From IMG/VR virus record IMGVR_UViG_2541047928_000016: 35,398 bases of DNA; one strand, written 5' to 3'. The notes beneath the pieces were generated by a model, which saw only the letters and a list, made by a program, of their open reading frames with translations, was not told the origin of the DNA and did no database searches. This document shows positions 21,301 through 34,158 of the stretch, one piece after another. The position numbers and the translations under genes are program-made. Each line of letters begins with the position of its first letter. The first letter of the stretch is position 1. This stretch comes from a virus (Duplodnaviria > Heunggongvirae > Uroviricota > Caudoviricetes).

Positions 21301-21579
21301 TTACCTCCAGATCCGTTGCTGGAAAGTGCGGGACGCACGTGGTGGGCGTTCGGAATAAGGCAGCCTGACAGAGATTATCCAGTGCCGATAGTCGAGACTG
21401 AGAGCTTTCTTAACCTCGAACCCGCGCCTGCGGTAAGAATGAATCAGCCATTCGGCCTGTTCTGCAGTGCATGGAGGGTGCTGGAACCATTCAGACTTGA
21501 ATGCGTGAGAATACCGCCCGTGCGTGCAGGCAAGAACGGGCGAATTATCAGAATTGTAATATTTTGCGTTGCGTGCCAT
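21301..21579 (-). CDS. Hypothetical protein (92 aa), translationally coupled to ydfU
   Basis: ATG at 21577-21579 with GGAG 8 nt upstream; MARNAKYYNSDNSPVLACTHGRYSHAFKSEWFQHPPCTAEQAEWLIHSYRRRGFEVKKALSLDYRH...; no family recognised. Confidence 0.55.
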   Translation of the reverse strand: MARNAKYYNSDNSPVLACTHGRYSHAFKSEWFQHPPCTAEQAEWLIHSYRRRGFEVKKALSLDYRHWIISVRLPYSERPPRASRTFQQRIWR

Positions 21580-21645
21580 CGGTTTTCTCCGGTGGCACGG
21601 TGTTACTCAGCGGGAGTTCAGCCCCGCGCAAGATTGTAGATGAGT

Positions 21646-21897
21646 TTATTCTCCTGAAAAAGCAGAAAAGCCAGCTTTTATTCCGATCTCTTTCAATGCC
21701 TGTAATGAAGTGACAAACTCACCTTCGCGCAAGATAAATCCGTCCGTGACCCGAGCATCCACAAAATTAATTAACGCAGCCCCATTCTTTCGCAAACACA
21801 TAATGCGGTAATGACTAACAAGATTTCCATTTTCAACGCACACAGCATAGAGGCCATCTTCACAAAAAATTTTACGCAGTTCTTCGATGTTCATCAT
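21646..21897 (-). CDS. rem: Small hypothetical protein (83 aa), Rem-like by position and size
   Basis: MMNIEELRKIFCEDGLYAVCVENGNLVSHYRIMCLRKNGAALINFVDARVTDGFILREGEFVTSLQALKEIGIKAGFSAFSGE; assignment to rem is from memory of Qin gene order, not verified. Confidence 0.55.
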   Translation of the reverse strand: MMNIEELRKIFCEDGLYAVCVENGNLVSHYRIMCLRKNGAALINFVDARVTDGFILREGEFVTSLQALKEIGIKAGFSAFSGE

Positions 21898-22113
21898 CAG
21901 AATCCTTCCGGATAATTAGCTCTCCCCTTTAAGGGACCATCCCTCTTATCCCTGCGCGCTACTTAAGTATTTTTGATTCTATTCCGGCACCGTCCAGAAC
22001 TTCAAACGCGTTGAAAATAAAAACAAAAACCAGCCGAAGCGGGTTAAGTGCGGGTGCGTTGAGGATGCCTGCCACATCAGAGGTGGCGAGGGATTTCTCC
22101 CCCGCCGGGTCTC

Positions 22114-22269
22114 TTACTCCTCAGGTTCGTAAGCTGTGAAGACAGCGACCTCCGTCTGGCCGGTTCGGATTCGTACCTCGCAGAGGTCTTTCCTCGTTAC
22201 CAGTGCCGTCACTATGACGGTTAAACAGATGACGATCAGGGCGATTAACATCGCCTTTTGCTGCTTCAT
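22114..22269 (-). CDS. hokD: Hok-family type I toxin (51 aa), HokD/RelF-like; below ORF-track cutoff
   Basis: Manual translation MKQQKAMLIALIVICLTVIVTALVTRKDLCEVRIRTGQTEVAVFTAYEPEE; single TM helix then conserved Hok periplasmic tail; 71 nt downstream of relE. Confidence 0.85.
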   Translation of the reverse strand: MKQQKAMLIALIVICLTVIVTALVTRKDLCEVRIRTGQTEVAVFTAYEPEE

Positions 22270-22340
22270 AGCCTGCTTCTCCTGTCAACGCAAAGCAGAA
22301 GTGTCACCTTCGGTGCGAAACAGAGATGTCATGCTTTGGT

Positions 22341-22628
22341 TCAGAGAATGCGTTTGACCGCCTCGCTATATACTTCCGAGCGTTCTCTTTTCCCAACAGA
22401 AATCACGAAAACGACAACTTTCTCGTCTATAACCTGGTATACAAGGCGATAGCCTGAAGACCGGAGCTTAATCTTGTAACAATCAGGCATACCACGGAGC
22501 TTGTTTGCTTCAATCCGGGGTGACTCAAGTACTTCAACCAGCTTCTTTTTCAACTGTTCACGTACCGTCGAGCCCAGCTTTCGCCATTCCTTTAGTGCCC
22601 GCTCGTCAAAATCCAGAAAATACGCCAT
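22341..22628 (-). CDS. relE: RelE mRNA interferase toxin (95 aa)
   Basis: MAYFLDFDERALKEWRKLGSTVREQLKKKLVEVLESPRIEANKLRGMPDCYKIKLRSSGYRLVYQVIDEKVVVFVISVGKRERSEVYSEAVKRIL. Confidence 0.95.
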   Translation of the reverse strand: MAYFLDFDERALKEWRKLGSTVREQLKKKLVEVLESPRIEANKLRGMPDCYKIKLRSSGYRLVYQVIDEKVVVFVISVGKRERSEVYSEAVKRIL

Positions 22629-22867
22629 CAGAGTTCATCCAGCGTCACACGTACTGGCTTAGGATTACGAAGCCGTTCTTTCACTATCTCCACAAGTTCA
22701 GCATCTTCATCACTCAGGAGTGTCTGTTTGAACGGCAAGCGTTCATTGTCAGCGATATACTCGAGCATGAGACGAAGCGCTTCAGAAGGAGTTACACCCA
22801 TTTTTTCAAGCGCGGCGTAAGAACGCGCTTTAAGTTCATCGTCAATACGCAGGTTAATGCTACCCAT
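22628..22867 (-). CDS. relB: RelB antitoxin (79 aa), RHH DNA-binding
   Basis: MGSINLRIDDELKARSYAALEKMGVTPSEALRLMLEYIADNERLPFKQTLLSDEDAELVEIVKERLRNPKPVRVTLDEL; stop overlaps relE start. Confidence 0.95.
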   Translation of the reverse strand: MGSINLRIDDELKARSYAALEKMGVTPSEALRLMLEYIADNERLPFKQTLLSDEDAELVEIVKERLRNPKPVRVTLDEL

Positions 22868-22879
22868 GTCTTACACCTC

Positions 22880-22904
22880 TTGTAATTACAAATGTCATTA
22901 CAAG
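22880..22904 (-). promoter_or_regulatory. Candidate relO operator: palindromic hexad repeats TTGTAATTACAA and TGTCATTACAAG just upstream of relB
   Basis: Seen directly in sequence 13-37 nt upstream of the relB start codon. Confidence 0.45.
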
Positions 22905-23197
22905 TATCGCACTACAACATGCTTAGGGCAAGTCACGAAGGAAGTCAGAAAGTAGTCGTAAGAACGGTGATCACTGTCCGCTTTGTGCCAGGAGCAGCCA
23001 TTGCTAAGTCCATCCTGTATTGTGCAGGTCAGCTCGTTTTTAAAGAGTCCGGCCATCATCTTACTGGTACAGACACCATATACTTTGTGACGGTCAGGCT
23101 ACATATGCACAACTCAACTTATTCATCTATTTTTTGCTTTAGCATGTCAGTGTTGCTTTCTCGTCGGCGGGTGAGCGGTGACCTGACCTGTCGATAA
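22892..23197 (+). CDS. Hypothetical ORF (101 aa), YdfV-like by position; doubtful
   Basis: ATG-initiated ORF divergent from relB but its start lies inside the relO operator and the translation is low-complexity; retained only because an ORF of this size is annotated at this position in Qin as I recall. Confidence 0.3.
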   Translation: MSLQVSHYNMLRASHEGSQKVVVRTVITVRFVPGAAIAKSILYCAGQLVFKESGHHLTGTDTIYFVTVRLHMHNSTYSSIFCFSMSVLLSRRRVSGDLTCR

Positions 23198-23349
23198 AGG
23201 AACGTAGCACGTTTTATGCAACACCCGCATGCGGCAGAAAATTATTGCCGAACGTTTACCCCTGTCAACAAGCTTTACTTTCTGAGGCGCGCCAGCCCGC
23301 GAGGAAAACAATCTGAACATCAAACAATTAATGACACAAGAAATACGAT

Positions 23350-23376
23350 TAAAGATTTTTTTGTGCATGCCGATAG
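23350..23376 (+). promoter_or_regulatory. Sigma-28 (FliA) class 3 flagellar promoter: TAAAGATT, 11-nt spacer, GCCGATAG
   Basis: Plus strand taaagatttttttgtgcatgccgatag, 24 nt upstream of flxA ATG; matches consensus TAAAGTTT-N11-GCCGATAA at 13 of 16 positions. Confidence 0.55.
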
Positions 23377-23399
23377 TGCTTTTTTAAAAGGAGAAATCT

Positions 23400-23732
23400 A
23401 TGTCTGTCACAATTCAGGGAAATACCTCAACCGTTATTTCAAACAACTCCGCCCCGGAAGGAACATCAGAAATAGCCAAAATCACAAGACAAATTCAGGT
23501 GCTGACTGAAAAGCTTGGGAAAATCTCATCGGAAGAGGGGATGACGACACAGCAGAAAAAAGAAATGGCTGCATTGGTACAGAAGCAAATTGAAAGCCTC
23601 AGGGCTCAACTGGAGCAGTTGTTAAGGCAGCAGGCAGAGAAAAAGAATAAAGACGCGACAGTTCAGCCTGATAAAAAAGAAGAGAAAAAAGACGATACAA
23701 ATACCGCTGGCACCATTGATATTTACGTCTAA
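23400..23732 (+). CDS. flxA: FlxA (FliA-regulated protein), 110 aa
   Basis: MSVTIQGNTSTVISNNSAPEGTSEIAKITRQIQVLTEKLGKISSEEGMTTQQKKEMAALVQKQIESLRAQLEQLLRQQAEKKNKDATVQPDKKEEKKDDTNTAGTIDIYV; AAGGAG RBS. Confidence 0.85.
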   Translation: MSVTIQGNTSTVISNNSAPEGTSEIAKITRQIQVLTEKLGKISSEEGMTTQQKKEMAALVQKQIESLRAQLEQLLRQQAEKKNKDATVQPDKKEEKKDDTNTAGTIDIYV

Positions 23733-23746
23733 GTGACAGCCGTATT

Positions 23747-23769
23747 GTGGCCCTCATCGGGCCACTTTT
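23747..23769 (+). terminator. Intrinsic terminator after flxA (GTGGCCC-TCATC-GGGCCAC then TTTT)
   Basis: Perfect 7-bp stem seen 15 nt after the flxA stop. Confidence 0.55.
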
Positions 23770-24059
23770 CGCCATCAGCCTTTTCTTTAAAGACATATTA
23801 TCTTTGTATCATTTCTGATAGTTAACATTACAAGATATAAGTAATGGACGCACTCCCAATTAGTCTATTTAAATCGCCACGAGTTTAACTGACAACCCAT
23901 GATCAATTATGAATTGCAACTATTTCTGTAGTCACTTTTGTGGGGACAGTCCACAAAACTGCCAACTTCCGCTTCTTGCTCTTAGCGGACATTAGCATAG
24001 GCTATTTACCATAACGCCTCATTACGCGCACCGCCCAGACTGACTCAGCGCGTTTCTGG

Positions 24060-25570
24060 CATATCCCCGGTAAAACAAGTAACAAACCACCCGAAAATGA
24101 ACACCAGAAACGCGACTTAAGAATCTACCCTATGAATGGATATGCACTCAACCGAATCGATCTTGGTTTCAATCTATTTTATCGGGATCAGGCTTCTTTT
24201 TAGGTAACTTCGGGGGCTTAACTTGCTGATGACTTTGCGTTCGGCGCGTAAGCCAGGGATGGTCAGCTTTAGATTTAACATAGTATTTTGAGCGTAAATC
24301 AATACGGGCATTATCCACTCGTTCATGGACACTCTTTTCATCATCCAGTGGTATAGGCTCCGGGCCATCAACATACTTTTCCCAGCCCAGCGCTTTCCCG
24401 TCATACAGAACGTTAATTTCACCGTCAAAGTTCTCACATACAGTAACAACTGAATGCCTAAGTCGATATCCCCGGCCCTCACTGCGTACCTGAAACGCAC
24501 TGCTTTTGTACTGGAAAGTGAGATTTTTAGACAGAACGCGCTTCGCCTGTAGGCTGAAGATATAACCCAGTTCCTCTTCAGAATGGTGCACATCAAGATG
24601 AGCATTATCAGTAGTACGAGGCGACGTAGCGAACCGGTTGTTATAGGCTTCAATAAAGGTCGGCAACCATGCATTTGCTGTTTCAATATCACTGATATTC
24701 TGAAGCCGCATTTCTTTGACCAGCCTGTCCTGTAGTGTCTGATTGGCGCGCTCTACCCGCCCTTTTGCCTGCGGGCTGTTGGCATGGATTGGCTCGATGC
24801 CCAGTGTCTTTATCGCACGAGTGAACTGGGTCAGCTCACCTTCCCGCTCTGGGTTATTTACCCTGAATATACTGTGTCTATCAGAGTAGAGAGCGAGCGG
24901 TACGCCATGATCATTAAGGTAACCCCGGAGGGTTTCCATGTAAGCCCGGGTTGTTTCAGCAGGCACAAAACGCAACGCCATCAACGCACTGGTGGCATCA
25001 TCAATGAAAACGATCAGTGTACATCTGGGGCCTCGATTTTCAAACCAGTCATGAGGTGAGCCATCAATCTGGATCAGTTCACCGTAAGATGGTCGTCGCA
25101 TGCGGCGTTGATATATACGGGCAATTTTACGACGGCGTTCACGCCATAACCCCTCTTCTATCATCCACTTTCTGAGAGTTTCAACGGATAAAGATAAACC
25201 GTGTATCTCGCGCAATTTTTCGCACGCAAACGTAGGTCCAAAATCAGCGTAACGGCCTTTGAGGAGTGAAATTACTGTTGCTCTGAATTCAGTAGAAAAG
25301 GAATTATTAGGACGCTTTCCACGTCGGTGGGAAACCAGACCAGAAGGCCCTTCATTTCTATACCGTTGCACCAGACGTTTAACCTGCCGAATAGAAATGC
25401 CAATGCGTGCCGCAGCTTGTTCCTGAGTAATATGTCGATTAATTGACTCCTGAATAATCTGAAGTCGGTGGAGTTCCTTATGACTCATCGTAACAGTCTC
25501 TTTGATCATGAAAAATCCCCCAGAGAATTGTCTGGGGACATTTTAGAATGGTTCAAAGGGGACATTACAG
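24060..25570 (-). mobile_element. Probable insertion sequence carrying a single DDE transposase; ends not resolved (no clean terminal inverted repeats or target-site duplication found)
   Basis: Single transposase gene interrupting the phage early region between flxA and the replication genes; candidate right end TGTAATGTCCCC at 25558-25569; boundaries approximate. Confidence 0.3.
24169..25509 (-). CDS. DDE-type transposase with N-terminal HTH and integrase-core (rve) domain, 446 aa; IS481/ISNCY-like
   Basis: MIKETVTMSHKELHRLQIIQESINRHITQEQAAARIGISIRQVKRLVQRYR... then LIQIDGSPHDW ... YSDRHSIF ... conserved acidic residues and Lys/Pro-rich C-tail; family-level call is from memory. Confidence 0.8.
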   Translation of the reverse strand: MIKETVTMSHKELHRLQIIQESINRHITQEQAAARIGISIRQVKRLVQRYRNEGPSGLVSHRRGKRPNNSFSTEFRATVISLLKGRYADFGPTFACEKLREIHGLSLSVETLRKWMIEEGLWRERRRKIARIYQRRMRRPSYGELIQIDGSPHDWFENRGPRCTLIVFIDDATSALMALRFVPAETTRAYMETLRGYLNDHGVPLALYSDRHSIFRVNNPEREGELTQFTRAIKTLGIEPIHANSPQAKGRVERANQTLQDRLVKEMRLQNISDIETANAWLPTFIEAYNNRFATSPRTTDNAHLDVHHSEEELGYIFSLQAKRVLSKNLTFQYKSSAFQVRSEGRGYRLRHSVVTVCENFDGEINVLYDGKALGWEKYVDGPEPIPLDDEKSVHERVDNARIDLRSKYYVKSKADHPWLTRRTQSHQQVKPPKLPKKKPDPDKID

Positions 25571-25962
25571 CTTGGTGTTAACAATAGCCTGCTTCTCCTT
25601 GCCTTCCGGCACTCGCGACAGATTATGTTTAGACGACTGTCGTAGCGACGTATTTCTCCGTCAGGTAATGACCAGATAAGGTCCGGATCAACCACAGCAG
25701 GTTTCTTCACCTTTGCCCTCGAGAGTTTTTTGCGGGCGTTTTGCCAGTCCTTACGCGCCTGTTCAGACGGGAATAACCCGTAACCAGAGCTGTATACATC
25801 GCCACTGGCAACCAGCTCTCTGGCCAGAACGCTCATCAGATATCTTGTTGCCCCAGTTTTAGCTTCCAGTTGTCGTAACGTCTCGCGCCCACTCTGGCGT
25901 ACGAGTTCCACCACCTGCCCTTTAATTTTTTCCCGCTCTTCTTGTGTAAAAACTTTTGCCAC
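25543..25962 (-). CDS. Hypothetical protein (139 aa) downstream of the replication initiator, in the position of a helicase loader; C-terminus may be altered by the adjacent IS
   Basis: GTG start with strong AGGAGG 5 nt upstream; basic Arg/Lys-rich C-terminal half; last codons fall within the candidate IS end. Confidence 0.55.
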   Translation of the reverse strand: MAKVFTQEEREKIKGQVVELVRQSGRETLRQLEAKTGATRYLMSVLARELVASGDVYSSGYGLFPSEQARKDWQNARKKLSRAKVKKPAVVDPDLIWSLPDGEIRRYDSRLNIICRECRKARRSRLLLTPSCNVPFEPF

Positions 25963-26002: not shown

Positions 26003-26968
26003 TTATCCCCTGAAACCAGGCGGAATTTCTGTATCCGGTTCAGAAATATGATTCACACAACGCTGTACAGGTGAACGTCCCAGGCGGATGACCAGTTCGT
26101 CCCATTTTTCGCGGAGTTTTGACGGGCTCATGATGTTTTTTACCCAGAATTGATCTCGCTGTACCCGACCAAACATTTCGCAAATTTGTCTGTGGCTTCT
26201 GCCATCCAGCATCCGCATTGTGCGCACGTCATTGGCCCAGGCTGTCCAGTTAGGCTCTTTTGGTCGCATGATCTCTCCATCGTCGCTGGCAGCCTGTTCG
26301 TAAAGGTTCACGATCCGCCCCCAAATCCACTGCGCACACGCCAAATCCTCCCTGCTACCCCACTGGCGTTTTTTCGCACTAAACACAACCGCGTCGGGGT
26401 TCCGGGTTAAAAAATCCTGTTCAGCGGTCTGCGGGTCCGGTTGCGAAGCTTCCGGACGAAAAGTGTTTTTATTCTCTGTAGTAATCTCTGTTGTATTCTC
26501 TGTAAGATCATCAGGCCATTTTGACCCGATGACATTGGGTCGTTTTGAACCAATGGAGCGTTTCATTTTGACCTCTTCCATCGTGTCATTTTGACCTGAT
26601 GGAGCGGCGCATTTTAAACCGATGGATTCGCTCAATTTGCCACCATCTAAAAGCTCGCTCCCGTAGTTGATCGTGTAGAAATTGGTCATATCGCGCTTTG
26701 ATTTATTGAGCTTTTCACAACGCAAAAGCCCCAGCGTTTTCAGACTTGCAAACGCGCGCTTTAACGTTGACTCTGACCAGAATGGGAACTGTTCCAGCCA
26801 TTGTTCCGTTGTGTTGTAAATCCAGCGAACACCATCACATTCCATGCCGGAATTGGTATCTCTCAACCAGTAATGCAACTGCTGCAACACAATGGCTTCA
26901 TTTAAGCCAATCTTCATCGCAAGCTGTGTGTTTATAACCAGTGGGCGTTCAGCAAAAAGAAGGCTCAT
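26003..26968 (-). CDS. Phage replication initiator (O-like replisome organiser), 321 aa from ATG 26968 (track TTG start at 27022)
   Basis: N-terminal HTH-like region MSLLFAERPLVINTQLAMKIGLNEAIVLQQLHYWL...; iteron array embedded mid-gene as in lambda O; position after the Cro/CII-slot genes. Confidence 0.75.
   Translation of the reverse strand: MSLLFAERPLVINTQLAMKIGLNEAIVLQQLHYWLRDTNSGMECDGVRWIYNTTEQWLEQFPFWSESTLKRAFASLKTLGLLRCEKLNKSKRDMTNFYTINYGSELLDGGKLSESIGLKCAAPSGQNDTMEEVKMKRSIGSKRPNVIGSKWPDDLTENTTEITTENKNTFRPEASQPDPQTAEQDFLTRNPDAVVFSAKKRQWGSREDLACAQWIWGRIVNLYEQAASDDGEIMRPKEPNWTAWANDVRTMRMLDGRSHRQICEMFGRVQRDQFWVKNIMSPSKLREKWDELVIRLGRSPVQRCVNHISEPDTEIPPGFRG
26461..26650. repeat. Candidate origin of replication: about 6 degenerate direct repeats (iterons) of period about 22-23 bp (ATTTTGACC..GATGGAGCG) plus 3 copies of TCTCTGT, inside the O-like gene
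   Basis: Seen directly: cattttgacccgatgacattgggtcg / ttttgaaccaatggagcg / tttcattttgacctcttccatcg / tgtcattttgacctgatggagcg / gcgcattttaaaccgatggattcg. Confidence 0.6.
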
Positions 26969-27470
26969 AATTCCATCCAGCTTTTTGTTGGTATTGCTGT
27001 CGATACGCAAGTTTGAAAGCAATTGCTTTTTCTATAAGTTCGTCAGTTTCACGATCCACTACGGCAGGATCAGCAAAAAGCAGTCCGGACTCCACCACAT
27101 CGCCATATTCTTTGTTTAACCCGGCGATCATGTACGTGATGCTTTTTCCGTCATTAATTTCACGATACAACCTGAAATCATTAATCCGAATAGCCTCCAT
27201 AATTGCAGGCACTAGCGCCGTGAACTTTTCACGCTTATCCCTGGTGTCGATAGCCTTCCAGCGTTCGAATATCTTCACTCGATTAACGCCAAGTGCTCGC
27301 TGATCAACCGCGCCACCTTCATCTGTGACACGCTGAACATCGATGTTCGGGCGCTCTTTCAAAGCCCAGAATGCTTCAGTGATTAATATCGTCGCCTGCT
27401 CCTGTGTCATTCCTGGTCGACATATCCAGGCATCCAGAGCCTCACGAGCCTGTTCAGGAGTGATTTTCAT
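26949..27470 (-). CDS. Hypothetical protein (173 aa) in the cII position between the cro-like gene and the replication initiator
   Basis: ATG at 27468-27470; MKITPEQAREALDAWICRPGMTQEQATILITEAFWALKERPNIDVQRVTDEGGAVDQRALGVNRVKIFERWKAIDTRDKREKF...; no family recognised. Confidence 0.6.
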   Translation of the reverse strand: MKITPEQAREALDAWICRPGMTQEQATILITEAFWALKERPNIDVQRVTDEGGAVDQRALGVNRVKIFERWKAIDTRDKREKFTALVPAIMEAIRINDFRLYREINDGKSITYMIAGLNKEYGDVVESGLLFADPAVVDRETDELIEKAIAFKLAYRQQYQQKAGWNYEPSFC

Positions 27471-27681
27471 TGTTCAACCGCCCCGCCCGCTTCGTCTTAC
27501 GATATTCGTCATAAACCTTGGGATCATACAGAAGCTCGCCGCCAGATGCCTCCTGTAGACGCATCGCGCGACCTTCAGGAACCAGCTCTTGCCATTGAGA
27601 AACAGCAGATGGGTCAACGCCAGCAGCTTTCGCTACTTTGGCTTTCGTACCGTAAAAATTAATTACGTCTGATTTAAACAT
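27454..27681 (-). CDS. dicC: Cro-like repressor, DicC-like (75 aa from ATG 27681)
   Basis: C-terminal ...ELVPEGRAMRLQEASGGELLYDPKVYDEYRKTKRAGRLNNENHS closely resembles recalled K-12 DicC; divergent from dicA. Confidence 0.75.
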   Translation of the reverse strand: MFKSDVINFYGTKAKVAKAAGVDPSAVSQWQELVPEGRAMRLQEASGGELLYDPKVYDEYRKTKRAGRLNNENHS

Positions 27682-27758
27682 CGCACCTCCAATATTGAGT
27701 TTTCTCAATGCTAATCACTCAAGGAATCTCAAGTCAAGGGTTATTAAGATATCTAAAT

Positions 27759-28166
27759 ATGAACGAGAAAACTTTAGGTCAACGCATTAGAGAAAGACGT
27801 AAGCAGGTAGGCTTAAGTCAAAACGGTTTAAGCAAAGCTGCTGGCGTATCTGGCTCATCAATTTCATTATGGGAAAGTGACCATACAGCCCCGCGCGGGC
27901 AAAATTTGCATCGCCTCGCCGAGGTATTGCAATGTTCACCAACTTGGATACTGTTTGGCGACGAGGACAAAACACCAGCTCCCCCTGTTTCACTCGATAG
28001 TGCCTTAGACTTATCGGAAGATGAGTTAGAGATGCTGCGTTTGTATCGCGCACTTCCTAAATCAGAGCAACAAGCACAACTCAGCGAACTCCGCGCCCGC
28101 GTTGAGAATTTTAATCGCCTGTTCACCGAGCTATTAGAGGCTCGCAAACGCAACAAGCATCAATAA
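27759..28166 (+). CDS. dicA: CI-type repressor with XRE-family HTH, DicA-like (135 aa)
   Basis: From ATG 27759: MNEKTLGQRIRERRKQVGLSQNGLSKAAGVSGSSISLWESDHTAPRGQNLHRLAEVLQCSPTWILFGDEDK...; HTH motif; 135 aa. Confidence 0.85.
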   Translation: MNEKTLGQRIRERRKQVGLSQNGLSKAAGVSGSSISLWESDHTAPRGQNLHRLAEVLQCSPTWILFGDEDKTPAPPVSLDSALDLSEDELEMLRLYRALPKSEQQAQLSELRARVENFNRLFTELLEARKRNKHQ

Positions 28167-29577: not shown

Positions 29578-29766
29578 ATGAAAACGTTATTACCAAACGT
29601 TAATACGTCTGAAGGTTGTTTTGAAATTGGTGTCACTATCAGTAACCCTGTATTTACTGAAGATGCCATTAACAAGAGAAAACAAGAACGGGAGCTATTA
29701 AATAAAATATGCATTGTTTCAATGCTGGCTCGTTTACGTCTGATGCCAAAAGGATGTGCACAATGA
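29578..29766 (+). CDS. dicB: Cell division inhibitor DicB (62 aa)
   Basis: MKTLLPNVNTSEGCFEIGVTISNPVFTEDAINKRKQERELLNKICIVSMLARLRLMPKGCAQ; GAGGA RBS. Confidence 0.85.
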   Translation: MKTLLPNVNTSEGCFEIGVTISNPVFTEDAINKRKQERELLNKICIVSMLARLRLMPKGCAQ

Positions 29767-30047: not shown

Positions 30048-32519
30048 ATGAGTAAAGTCTTTATTTGCGCCGCTATTCCTGACGAACTGGCAACAAGGGA
30101 AGAAGGCGCTGTGGCTGTAGCCACAGCCATTGAAGCTGGCGACGAACGCCGTGCTCGAGCAAAATTTCACTGGCAGTTCCTGGAACATTATCCGGCTGCT
30201 CAGGACTGCGCTTATAAATTTATTGTCTGCGAGGATAAACCTGGCATACCCCGCCCTGCCCTCGATTCATGGGATGCTGAATATATGCAGGAAAACCGCT
30301 GGGATGAGGAGTCTGCTTCTTTTGTCCCGGTTGAGACTGAATCCGATCCGATGAACGTCACTTTTGACAAGCTGGCCCCTGAAGTACAGAACGCTGTCAT
30401 GGTTAAGTTCGACACATGTGAAAACATCACCGTTGATATGGTTATTAGCGCACAGGAATTGTTGCAGGAAGACATGGCAACATTCGACGGACATATCGTT
30501 GAAGCGTTGATGAAAATGCCAGAAGTTAACGCCATGTATCCGGAGCTTAAGTTGCACGCCATTGGGTGGGTTAAGCATAAATGTATTCCTGGTGCTAAAT
30601 GGCCCGAAATTCAGGCAGAGATGCGCATCTGGAAAAAACGTCGCGAAGGTGAACGCAAGGAAACCGGAAAATACACGTCTGTTGTTGATCTCGCCCGCGC
30701 CAGAGCCAATCAACAGTACACTGAAAATTCAACAGGAAAAATCAGCCCGGTCATTGCTGCCATTCATCGCGAATACAAGCAGACATGGAAAACACTGGAT
30801 GACGAACTGGCCTACGCTCTCTGGCCTGGTGATGTGGATGCCGGAAACATTGACGGCAGCATCCATCGCTGGGCAAAAAAAGAAGTTATCGACAACGACC
30901 GCGAAGACTGGAAGCGTATCTCGGCATCAATGCGCAAACAGCCTGATGCCCTTCGCTACGACCGCCAAACTATTTTTGGCCTTGTCCGTGAGCGTCCGAT
31001 CGACATTCACAAAGATCCCGTAGCACTGAACAAATATATCTGCGAATACCTGACGACAAAGGGCGTGTTTGAGAATGAAGAAACAGACCTGGGCACTGTT
31101 GATGTTCTCCAGTCATCAGAAACACAAACTGATGCAGTGGAAACTGAGGTATCTGATATCCCAAAAAATGAAACCGCGCCGGAAGCTGAACCATCTGTAG
31201 AGCGTGAGGGGCCGTTCTATTTCCTCTTCGCAGATAAGGACGGAGAAAAATACGGTCGCGCAAACAAACTTTCTGGTCTGGATAAGGCACTGGCTGCTGG
31301 CGCCACTGAAATCACAAAAGAAGAATATTTTGCCCGAAAAAATGGCACATACACGGGCTTACCGCAAAATGTAGATACCGCTGAAGATTCAGAACAACCA
31401 GAGCCGATAAAAGTTACCGCTGACGAAGTAAACAAAATTATGCAGGCAGCCAATATCAGCCAGCCTGACGCCGATAAGTTGCTTGCTGCATCACGTGGTG
31501 AATTTGTTGAAGGGATTAGTGACCCGAATGATCCGAAATGGGTTAAGGGGATCCAGACCCGCGATTCTGTGAACCAGAACCAGCATGAATCGGAACGGAA
31601 CTACCAAAAAGCGGAACAAAACAGTCCAAATGCGTTACAAAACGAGCCAGAAACGAAACAGCCTGAACCAGTGGCGCAACAGGAAGTGGAAAAAGCCTGC
31701 ACCGCCTGCGGTCAGACCGGCGGCGGCAACTGCCCTGATTGTGGCGCGGTGATGGGCGACGCAACATACCAAGAAACATTCGATGAAGAGTATCAGGTTG
31801 AAGTTCAGGAAGATGATCCGGAGGAAATGGAAGGCGCTGAACATCCACACAAGGAGAACACTGGCGGCAATCAGCATCACAATAGCGATAATGAAACTGG
31901 CGAGACGGCAGATCACCCAATTAAGGTGAACGGTCATCACGAAATCACATCCACCAGCAGGACGTGTGACCATCTAATGATCGACCTTGAAACCATGGGA
32001 AAAAATCCTGATGCCCCGATCATCTCAATAGGTGCAATATTTTTCGATCCGCAAACCGGAGATATGGGACCGGAATTTAGTAAGACTATCGATCTGGAAA
32101 CTGCTGGCGGAGTCATTGATCGGGACACCATTAAATGGTGGCTTAAGCAATCACGCGAAGCGCAATCTGCCATTATGACCGATGAAATCCCGTTAGATGA
32201 TGCACTGTTACAATTGCGGGAATTTATCGACGAAAACTCCGGTGAATTTTTTGTTCAGGTTTGGGGAAATGGAGCCAACTTCGACAACACGATTTTGCGC
32301 CGTTCATACGAACGGCAGGGGATCCCCTGCCCGTGGCGTTACTACAACGATCGCGATGTACGCACAATCGTTGAGCTGGGGAAAGCCATAGACTTCGATG
32401 CCAGAACGGCTATTCCATTCGAAGGTGAGCGCCATAATGCACTTGATGACGCCCGTTACCAGGCAAAATACGTTTCAGTTATCTGGCAAAAACTGATCCC
32501 GAGTCAGGCTGATTCTTAA
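30048..32519 (+). CDS. Large multidomain protein (823 aa) with C-terminal DnaQ-like DEDDh 3'-5' exonuclease domain, internal zinc ribbon and acidic linker; YdfE-family
   Basis: Exo motifs HLMIDLETMG (Exo I), GNGANFDNTIL (Exo II), HNALDDARY (Exo III); zinc ribbon CTACGQTGGGNCPDCG; Glu/Asp/Gln-rich low-complexity segment aa 570-640. Confidence 0.85.
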   Translation: MSKVFICAAIPDELATREEGAVAVATAIEAGDERRARAKFHWQFLEHYPAAQDCAYKFIVCEDKPGIPRPALDSWDAEYMQENRWDEESASFVPVETESDPMNVTFDKLAPEVQNAVMVKFDTCENITVDMVISAQELLQEDMATFDGHIVEALMKMPEVNAMYPELKLHAIGWVKHKCIPGAKWPEIQAEMRIWKKRREGERKETGKYTSVVDLARARANQQYTENSTGKISPVIAAIHREYKQTWKTLDDELAYALWPGDVDAGNIDGSIHRWAKKEVIDNDREDWKRISASMRKQPDALRYDRQTIFGLVRERPIDIHKDPVALNKYICEYLTTKGVFENEETDLGTVDVLQSSETQTDAVETEVSDIPKNETAPEAEPSVEREGPFYFLFADKDGEKYGRANKLSGLDKALAAGATEITKEEYFARKNGTYTGLPQNVDTAEDSEQPEPIKVTADEVNKIMQAANISQPDADKLLAASRGEFVEGISDPNDPKWVKGIQTRDSVNQNQHESERNYQKAEQNSPNALQNEPETKQPEPVAQQEVEKACTACGQTGGGNCPDCGAVMGDATYQETFDEEYQVEVQEDDPEEMEGAEHPHKENTGGNQHHNSDNETGETADHPIKVNGHHEITSTSRTCDHLMIDLETMGKNPDAPIISIGAIFFDPQTGDMGPEFSKTIDLETAGGVIDRDTIKWWLKQSREAQSAIMTDEIPLDDALLQLREFIDENSGEFFVQVWGNGANFDNTILRRSYERQGIPCPWRYYNDRDVRTIVELGKAIDFDARTAIPFEGERHNALDDARYQAKYVSVIWQKLIPSQADS

Positions 32520-32862: not shown

Positions 32863-34158
32863 ATGAGAGAAGTTGAAATGAAATATCCGACAGGCGTGGA
32901 AAACCATGGAGGGAAATTACGTATCTGGTTTGTTTATAAAGGCGTAAGAGTCAGGGAAAATCTGGGGGTTCCTGACACAGCAAAAAACAGGCGCGTTGCA
33001 GGTGAACTACGCTCCTCTGTTTGTTACGCAATAAAAACTGGTGTTTTCGACTATGCAAAACAGTTTCCCTCCTCACGCAATCTGGAAAAATTTGGTGAGG
33101 CCCGACAAGATTTAACCATAAAAGAACTGGCTGAAAAATTTCTGGCACTGAAAGAAACTGAAGTCGCCAAAACATCACTCAACACATACCGTGCCGTCAT
33201 CAAAAATATCCTGAGCATAATCGGTGAAAAAAATCTTGCCTCATCGATTAATAAAGAAAAATTACTGGAGGTTCGTAAAGAGCTACTGACTGGATACCAG
33301 ATCCCCAAAAGTAACTATATTGTTACACAACCAGGGAGATCGGCTGTAACTGTAAATAATTACATGACAAATCTTAACGCCGTGTTCCAGTTTGGTGTTG
33401 ATAACGGTTACCTGGCAGATAATCCGTTTAAGGGGATCTCGCCATTAAAGGAATCAAGAACCATTCCGGATCCTCTTGCGCGGGAGGAATTTATCCGTCT
33501 TATCGATGCATGCAGAAATCAGCAAGCAAAAAATTTATGGTGTGTTTCTGTTTATACTGGCGTTCGCCCTGGTGAGCTGTGTGCACTTGGATGGGAGGAC
33601 ATAGATCTGAAAAATGGAACAATGATGATCAGGAGAAATTTAGCAAAAGACCGTTTCACGGTACCAAAAACACAGGCGGGAACCAATCGGGTCATTCATC
33701 TTATTAAGCCAGCAATCGACGCTCTCCGGAGTCAGATGACATTAACGAGACTGAGCAAAGAGCATATCATTGATGTTCACCTCAGAGAGTATGGCAGAAC
33801 AGAAAAACAAAAATGCACCTTTGTTTTTCAACCTGAAGTGTCAGCGAGAGTAAAAAATTATGGTGACCATTTTACCGTTGACTCAATAAGGCAGATGTGG
33901 GACGCAGCGATAAAACGTGCCGGACTCCGCCATCGAAAATCATATCAGTCGAGACATACTTATGCCTGCTGGTCGCTGACAGCTGGTGCTAACCCGGCAT
34001 TTATAGCAAACCAGATGGGCCATGCAGATGCGCAAATGGTATTTCAGGTATACGGAAAATGGATGTCTGAAAACAATAATGCACAGGTAGCTTTGTTAAA
34101 TACACAGTTAAGCGAGTTTGCCCCAACCATGCCCCATAACGAAGCAATGAAAAATTAA
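32863..34158 (+). CDS. Tyrosine site-specific integrase (lambda Int family), about 426-431 aa
   Basis: C-terminal catalytic region with conserved R (VYTGVRPGE), H-x-x-R (HRKSYQSRHTYA) and GH...VYGKW tyrosine; alternative ATG at 32878. Confidence 0.9.
   Translation: MREVEMKYPTGVENHGGKLRIWFVYKGVRVRENLGVPDTAKNRRVAGELRSSVCYAIKTGVFDYAKQFPSSRNLEKFGEARQDLTIKELAEKFLALKETEVAKTSLNTYRAVIKNILSIIGEKNLASSINKEKLLEVRKELLTGYQIPKSNYIVTQPGRSAVTVNNYMTNLNAVFQFGVDNGYLADNPFKGISPLKESRTIPDPLAREEFIRLIDACRNQQAKNLWCVSVYTGVRPGELCALGWEDIDLKNGTMMIRRNLAKDRFTVPKTQAGTNRVIHLIKPAIDALRSQMTLTRLSKEHIIDVHLREYGRTEKQKCTFVFQPEVSARVKNYGDHFTVDSIRQMWDAAIKRAGLRHRKSYQSRHTYACWSLTAGANPAFIANQMGHADAQMVFQVYGKWMSENNNAQVALLNTQLSEFAPTMPHNEAMKN

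Follow-up and report, generated by a model that had tools for sequence, protein, structure and literature searches.

We found that positions 26470 to 26647 of a 35,398-nucleotide (nt) stretch of viral DNA (IMG/VR record IMGVR_UViG_2541047928_000016, called the window throughout) are very probably the replication origin of a lambdoid prophage, placed inside the linker-coding part of the prophage's own initiator gene. The window is a lambdoid prophage, and the gene is an O-like replication initiator gene on the minus strand (Table 1). The DNA between the parts that encode its N-terminal and C-terminal domains contains six 23-nt repeats (iterons) and three 12-nt repeats (12-mers). An origin inside an initiator gene is textbook for lambda and hence unsurprising, and the first-pass annotation, made from the letters of the window alone, had already likened the arrangement to oriLambda. 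This likeness is supported computationally by dyad-symmetric iterons between two domain-coding parts, an A+T-rich stretch on their 3' side, the order of the operon, homology to the C-terminal domain of lambda O, constraint at the DNA level, conservation in 184 related loci, and co-variation of the iteron sequence with the N-terminal domain. The locus probably works like oriLambda, but it is not a straightforward O/P module, because its N-terminal domain (N-domain) is not the Pfam lambda-O domain and it has no P-like partner gene. This module of initiator and origin is very common in Escherichia coli prophages yet unannotated, and its DNA-binding domain differs from that of lambda O.

Iterons and 12-mers in the linker-coding DNA

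On the sense (minus) strand, the iteron unit is CATCrGGTCAAAATGrCCyGATG, a dyad-symmetric near-palindrome, and successive copies are spaced by 24, 23, 23, 23, and 23 nt. The copy farthest from the 12-mers, at 26625-26647, is degenerate, which makes the first-pass count of five to six direct repeats of about 22 to 23 bp at 26461-26650 a fair one; its coordinates and copy number are correct. Pairwise, the 23-nt copies are 62 to 83% alike. Because they are too divergent for Tandem Repeats Finder, that program reported only the 12-nt array, and the 23-nt array was measured by lag autocorrelation instead. The self-match of 26505-26650 is 0.52 at a lag of 23 nt (0.516) and 0.53 at a lag of 46 nt. 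When the best self-match over lags of 10 to 40 nt was used as the score, none of 5,000 dinucleotide-preserving shuffles reached the observed periodicity (mean for the best lag, 0.339; standard deviation, 0.022; maximum, 0.448; z = 8.3), so in self-comparison the repeats lie far above random expectation, as the earlier claim required. We also resampled the segment 5,000 times by redrawing codons while keeping the protein, and none of these sequences reached the observed 0.516 (mean, 0.388; maximum, 0.508), showing that the repeats go beyond what the protein sequence requires. A scan of the whole window shows a cluster of the iteron motif at this array only.

The repeat core proposed at first pass, ATTTTGACC, is correct and is the reverse complement of GGTCAAAAT. 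The proposed second part of the core, GATGGAGCG, is found exactly in two copies and partially in a third, but it represents the place where neighboring repeats join. Only one other stretch of the window is equally periodic (approximately 31511 to 31700, plus strand, with a 21-nt period and a self-match of 0.51 to 0.58). This repeat keeps the reading frame and codes for a low-complexity segment, rich in Gln, Glu, Asn, and Pro, of the exonuclease-like protein, and for these reasons its periodicity is probably that of a peptide-level repeat.

The 12-mers contain the three TCTCTGT copies that had been noticed at first pass, each of them exact (26473-26479, 26485-26491, and 26497-26503). The A+T-richest part of the gene lies immediately 3' of the iterons in the direction of transcription, with a G+C content of 27.5% at 26460-26499 that is the lowest in the initiator gene and the minimum between positions 25800 and 27300. 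The exact 12-mer is found at this block only in the window, and the block is presumed to be an unwinding or helicase-entry element. A GATC (Dam) site at 26506-26509 falls exactly where the last iteron meets the first 12-mer (GATGATCTTACAGAGA); the site is retained in several enterobacterial relatives (loci L003, L004, and L008) and not in another (L005).

The iteron core GGTCAAAATG is read in codon phases 3, 2, 1, 3, 2, and 2, giving GKL, LKC, GQN, VKM, GSK, and GSK. Since 23 is not divisible by 3 and the core falls in every codon phase, what repeats is the DNA and not the peptide. The 23-nt repeats encode SESIGLKCAAPSGQNDTMEEVKMKRSIGSKRPNVIGSKWPDD, and the 12-nt repeats are in frame and encode TENT, TEIT, and TENK. 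A Thr/Glu/Asn-rich linker had been predicted from this region, and such a peptide is present (LTENTTEITTENKNT), but it comes from the 12-mers and not from the 23-nt repeats. Among 58 unique close relatives, variability at the first, second, and third codon positions of the N-domain is 0.14, 0.07, and 0.54, respectively, a normal coding signature. The corresponding values are 0.19, 0.28, and 0.12 for the iteron cores and 0.03, 0.09, and 0.04 for the 12-mers, in which synonymous positions are nearly invariant. From this pattern, synonymous sites in the repeats are constrained. In the 23-nt register, the least variable positions are the CAAA-TG center and the outer CAT/ATG arms. Because residues 109 to 175 of the linker are unstructured in the structure model, the origin appears to be placed where the protein imposes the least constraint.

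Related loci and co-variation with the N-terminal domain

Three scans of viral contigs, together with phage records, yielded the 184 unique related loci; the first scan returned near-identical loci only, and a re-ordered query alignment yielded the diverse ones. The N-domain is 45 to 78% identical in phages of E. coli, Klebsiella, Pantoea, Erwinia, Pseudomonas, Hafnia, Staphylococcus (phage 96), and Bacillus (TP21-L). Most of them have, after the N-domain, 4 to 7 palindromic repeats at 22 to 24 nt and then ACAGAGAnTAC repeats, and the best period after the N-domain is 22, 23, or 24 nt in every one of the 184 loci. The iterons of the relatives are palindromes around CAAAATG or CAAATTG, with arms that vary by clade (GGTCA, GGGCA, GGACA, GGATCA, or GTATCA).

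We found that the base 5' of CAAA tracks the residue preceding the invariant Thr of the N-domain motif FWSxxT.KR. All 74 loci with Ser have T, all 19 with Asp have G, and 16 of the 19 with Lys or Arg have A, and each pairing is present in several sequence contexts and host groups. The co-varying residue is S67, at the start of helix 66-78 in the AlphaFold2 winged-helix model, and this helix is predicted to be the recognition helix of the fold. Of the computational evidence for reading of the repeats by the N-domain, this co-variation is the strongest. The comparative data thus give a testable recognition rule (Ser-T, Asp-G, and Lys/Arg-A at one half-site position) together with a conserved 12-mer.

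At least two CAGAGA copies are present in 157 of the 184 related loci, and three copies are present in 125; successive copies are 12 nt apart 266 times and 11 nt apart 22 times. Positions +7 and +8 of the 12-mer are T and A in 96 to 97% of the copies in the relatives, and the block begins 18 to 21 nt past the center of the last iteron in most loci. Translation of the CAGAGA motif uses two frames in 24 related loci, giving P-E-T, Q-R, or R-D. As DNA, ACAGAGAnTAC is conserved from enterobacterial phages to phages of Staphylococcus and Bacillus. In phages of low-G+C hosts, the G+C content of the block is 41%, compared to 35% for the gene, so the 12-mer is conserved as a sequence and not as an A/T-rich tract.

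The Shiga toxin 2a (Stx2a) phage Stx2_14040 (locus L002; O gene at 2094-2987) has a very different N-domain, followed by iterons of the GGGAAACCC type at 23 nt; a profile alignment (hhalign) of its O N-domain with the one studied here gave only weak, though co-linear, similarity (E = 0.0065; probability, 6%). A 40-nt stretch that is 97.5% identical to the window is found in the O genes of Stx2_14040 and 18 other Stx phage records, and this stretch is the 12-mer block. The match occurs in many Stx phage O genes because a distantly related O gene carries the same block, which suggests that the 12-mer block is exchanged or conserved as a separate module. A tentative possibility is that ACAGAGAnTAC is a sequence-specific origin element in phages of Proteobacteria and Firmicutes, for example a defined unwinding or helicase-entry site, that might be read by the initiator N-domain on single-stranded DNA or by a universal host replisome protein, with stand-alone initiators recruiting the host machinery via tails that copy host hub proteins (DnaT here, and the tip of the single-stranded DNA-binding protein [SSB] in relatives). 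We found no published account of such a scheme in the searchable literature, a search that did not extend to older work in subscription journals.

Proposed initiator function and competing explanations

In the AlphaFold2 model, the N-domain is a winged helix spanning residues 8 to 101, with helices at 14-20, 22-38, 54-60, and 66-78, a beta hairpin at 82-101, and a predicted local distance difference test score (pLDDT) of approximately 70 to 76. The C-terminal domain is modeled with helices at 206-295, and the tail is unstructured. Foldseek matches to the N-domain are winged-helix proteins; the best are RepA_N plasmid initiators, which are weak matches to a moderate-confidence model (4pql_B, E = 0.018; 4pt7_B, E = 0.061; 5kbj_H, E = 0.092). 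By BLASTP, residues 147 to 294 of the initiator match residues 135 to 270 of lambda O with 34% identity over 148 residues (E = 3e-28); in lambda O, the C-terminal domain interacts with P. Pfam and NCBIfam gave no family for the initiator beyond its DnaT-like tail.

No P, DnaC, or DnaB domain was found among the 16 larger open reading frames (ORFs) of the window that were scanned, a set that leaves out the small ORFs at 21338-24169. The isolated phage HannyBb likewise has no P, DnaC, or DnaB gene between O and Q. An insertion sequence lies downstream in the window, and we rejected it as the cause of the missing P, since HannyBb carries no insertion-sequence gene at the equivalent place and also lacks P. 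A phmmer search of the PDB matched DnaT chains (2ru8_A, 6aep_A, and 9zbt_D) to residues 301 to 321 of the initiator only, with SEPDTEIPPGFRG in the initiator aligned to SEPDSQIPPGFRG in E. coli DnaT. The initiator is not itself a DnaT, the name that some phage records give it, as model NF002770 scored 16.2 bits against a cutoff of 201 and matched at model positions 160 to 179 only. An ORF with a Walker A motif follows none of 84 unique relatives with a DnaT-like tail, compared to 30 of 87 without one (Fisher P = 1e-10, uncorrected for ancestry). The C terminus of 15 related initiators reads ..DD[LI]PF or ..[IV]LPF, resembling the tip of bacterial SSB (e.g., gp32 of Bacillus phage TP21-L; locus L011, 1492-2307), and a Walker A ORF follows 12 of these 15. 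The papers examined, including a 2026 preprimosome paper, do not state the binding partner of the last DnaT residues. A role for the tail in recruiting primosome or helicase-loading proteins of the host is speculative, and this initiator-only design with a DnaT tail offers a handle on DnaB loading in such phages.

By analogy with lambda, dimers of the N-domain would bind the six dyad-symmetric iterons, which are 23 bp (approximately 2.2 helical turns) apart and each centered on an A-tract. The resulting nucleoprotein complex would bend and stress the DNA, and the duplex would open at the three adjoining ACAGAGAnTAC 12-mers. Transcription from the pR-like promoter through the cro, cII-like, and O-like genes would probably aid activation, as it does in lambda. 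The host helicase would then be brought in via the C-terminal part of the initiator, most likely by direct recruitment of the host primosome or the DnaB-DnaC machinery, because there is no P, DnaC, or DnaB gene and the initiator ends in a copy of the DnaT tail.

Several observations weigh against an origin of this kind. In the closest clade, the iteron cores are barely more conserved than the spacers (0.198 versus 0.213), and the counts of residue-base co-variation are not corrected for shared ancestry. The AlphaFold2 model is of moderate quality (mean pLDDT of 56, approximately 70 for the N-domain), and the best Foldseek matches have E values above 0.01. The N-domain matched no Pfam family, Phage_rep_O, RepA_N, and Phage_rep_org_N included, even at an E value of 10, and neither BLASTP nor hhalign matched it to residues 1 to 130 of lambda O, a comparison made with a shallow profile that leaves room for remote homology. 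Helicase loading must occur without P, DnaC, or DnaB genes, and we found no experiments on this initiator protein family in the searchable literature.

The repeats could instead be initiator-binding sites with a mainly regulatory role: they might let the operon regulate itself, limit replication by titration or handcuffing, or exclude related phages, and replication would then start elsewhere. The co-variation shows that the N-domain and the repeats belong together and not what their binding achieves, and two reports describe inhibition of related phages by plasmid-borne lambda ori fragments (PMC3349717, PMC4488673). We nonetheless consider a mainly regulatory array unlikely, given that the conserved 12-mer block consistently comes after the repeats at a set distance, which is what an unwinding element would show, that their position relative to the homologous C-terminal domain matches that of oriLambda, and that the window holds no second cluster of the motif. 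It is also conceivable that another phage or host regulator, such as the cII-like/YdaT protein, Cro, or DnaA, binds the repeats, as several helix-turn-helix regulators are encoded next door. This is highly improbable, because the iteron sequence tracks the O-like N-domain across loci with differing neighbor genes and no DnaA box lies within approximately 2.7 kb of the array (sites with one mismatch come no closer than 24311 and 30886).

Two further explanations assign the repeats no role as DNA-binding sites. Functionless remnants of slippage duplication could persist in a disordered linker (pLDDT of approximately 25), a type of region that tolerates duplications, and the copies are indeed degenerate. 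Such an account is very unlikely to hold for repeats that share the same period and palindromic design in 184 loci of phages from Proteobacteria to Firmicutes, have constrained synonymous positions, and shift in sequence in step with a residue of the N-domain. A repeated peptide needed in the protein, for example a linker binding motif, would be in keeping with the in-frame TENT/TEIT/TENK series of the 12-mers, but we rejected it for the 23-nt repeats on reading-frame grounds, as their period does not preserve the frame and their core is translated in three phases. With the CAGAGA motif also read in two frames among the relatives, a peptide-level cause is barely credible. A replication origin read by its own initiator thus remains our preferred interpretation of the repeats.

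Known systems and the gene neighborhood

Like those of lambda, the iterons occupy the central part of the initiator gene, an A/T-rich region comes next as transcription proceeds, and in both cases the operon order is cro, cII, O. In the four annotated lambda iterons, dyad arms surround CAAAACG, TAAAACG, CAAATTG, or CAAAACA, and the spacings are 20, 24, and 23 nt, so the two loci have in common a CAAAAYG center, dyad arms, and a spacing of 20 to 24 nt. In an alignment anchored on the C-terminal domain, the 12-mer block falls opposite the A/T-rich region of lambda O. The two differ in iteron number (four in lambda and six here), in the arms (CCCTC in lambda and GGTCA here), and in having an A/T tract in lambda where three copies of a specific 12-mer are found here. 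In addition, the N-terminal Phage_rep_O domain of lambda O (PF04492) was not detected in this initiator, the P gene of the lambda O-P module is absent here, with its slot held by the DUF977/Ren-like gene, and lambda O lacks the DnaT-like tail. The Stx phages 933W and P27 have six-iteron origins, as here, and in both lambda and the six-iteron Stx phages the repeats inside the O gene are established as the origin (PMC7466680).

Other initiator genes also contain repeats. SPP1 G38P with oriL and phage 80alpha ORF20 resemble the present locus in having the origin inside the gene for the protein that binds it, but they have another N-terminal domain, with no Phage_rep_org_N match found here, and they are accompanied by a helicase loader with or without a helicase. 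RepA_N origin iterons lie inside the rep gene, between the two domain-coding parts. The winged-helix RepA_N plasmid initiators (pSK41 and pTZ2162 RepA; PDB 4pql, 4pt7, and 5kbj) are the best structural match to the N-domain model, but this match is weak (E = 0.018; template modeling [TM] score of 0.47 on the target), has no counterpart in sequence or Pfam searches, and involves Gram-positive plasmids rather than phages. We take P22 gp18 to belong to a different initiator family from the O-like protein described here. In the lambdoid phages P22 and L, an array of short direct repeats falls inside gene 18, which encodes the origin-binding protein; the repeat sequence is particular to each type of initiator, and these internal repeats are taken as origins. 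The initiator is paired there with the DnaB-type helicase gp12 (PMC8022706), whereas no helicase gene was found in the window. In phage 80alpha, with its origin within the initiator gene, deletion of ORF20 was not complemented in trans (PMC5499656). TP901-1 ORF13 and r1t ORF11, for which internal repeats have been published, were rejected as relatives, as they are non-homologous and have a 15-nt repeat period.

Searches of the literature on mEp460, "initiator-solo" modules, the origin of this initiator family, and phage DnaT-like tails found nothing specific except DopC. This protein is a domesticated lambda-O-like protein with a C-terminal part that resembles the DnaT C terminus (PDB 2ru8) (Brezellec et al. 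2017, PMC5509034). The DopC gene is chromosomal and has a P-like gene as its partner, and the authors of that study detected no iterons in it, whereas in the present locus iterons are present and P is absent.

TABLE 1 Coordinates of the putative origin, the initiator gene, and neighboring features in the window
Feature	Position	Strand	Details
Six 23-nt iterons	26509-26647	-	Lag self-match, shuffles; motif cluster
Iteron copies (plus-strand coordinates)	26509-26531, 26533-26555, 26556-26578, 26579-26601, 26602-26624, 26625-26647		
Three 12-nt repeats	26470-26505	-	Sense strand TACAGAGAATAC, AACAGAGATTAC, TACAGAGAATAA; directly abut the iterons
O-like replication initiator gene	26003-26968	-	321 amino acids (aa); ATG at 26968; stop at 26003-26005
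N-terminal winged-helix domain, presumed iteron binding	26654-26968	-	aa 1-105
Disordered linker coding region, holds iterons and 12-mers	26444-26644	-	aa 109-175; AlphaFold2 pLDDT ~25
Helical C-terminal domain	26081-26428	-	aa 181-296; homologous to lambda O C-terminal domain
C-terminal tail VQRCVNHISEPDTEIPPGFRG	26006-26068	-	aa 301-321; nearly identical to host DnaT C terminus
Integrase gene	32863-34158		Adjoins host phosphotransferase system (PTS) gene
Exonuclease-like gene	ORF 30048-32519	+	
cI-like repressor	27708-28166	+	
pR-like promoter candidate, precedes cro	27708-27737	-	Consensus match 9/12, pattern match only
cro-like gene	27454-27708	-	Pfam P22_Cro, 4.5e-16
cII-like/YdaT-family gene	26949-27470	-	Pfam YdaT_toxin, 8.8e-06; phrog_163 "CII-like transcriptional activator," 3.4e-40
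DUF977/Ren-like gene, directly downstream of initiator	25543-25962	-	Pfam DUF977, 4.1e-22; phrog_142 "Ren-like exclusion protein," 4e-35
Insertion-sequence transposase, just past DUF977 gene	24169-25509	-	446 aa; helix-turn-helix domains and rve_3 integrase core

The early region has a cI-like gene on the plus strand followed by the cro, cII-like, and O-like genes on the minus strand, behind the pR-like promoter candidate, from which transcription would cross cro, the cII-like gene, and the putative origin (Table 1). Beyond the transposase are DUF968, antiterminator Q, lysis, and terminase genes. The initiator ORF as listed extends to a TTG at 27022 (339 aa), but we set the start at 26968 because homologues begin with MSLL, and the annotations of phages mEp460_ev081 and HannyBb agree with this start. 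Residues 35 to 339 of the 339-residue ORF match positions 11 to 298 of the 298 in phrog_391, "replication initiation O-like" (E = 5.1e-93). The gene shares 99.8% identity with its counterpart in phage mEp460_ev081 and 97 to 98% with those in phages HannyBb and PhiR42_1. Phage records name it either "replication initiation O-like" or "Primosomal protein I," the latter of which is misleading. Among complete E. coli genomes, 1,747 of 5,426 contain the gene over at least 80% of its length and 3,957 contain it in part; in all records among the matches listed, the copies are labeled "hypothetical protein," and the origin is unannotated. We also observed two tandem copies of a 13-nt unit, AAACGTTAATACC, at 29582-29606, between the immunity genes and the exonuclease gene.

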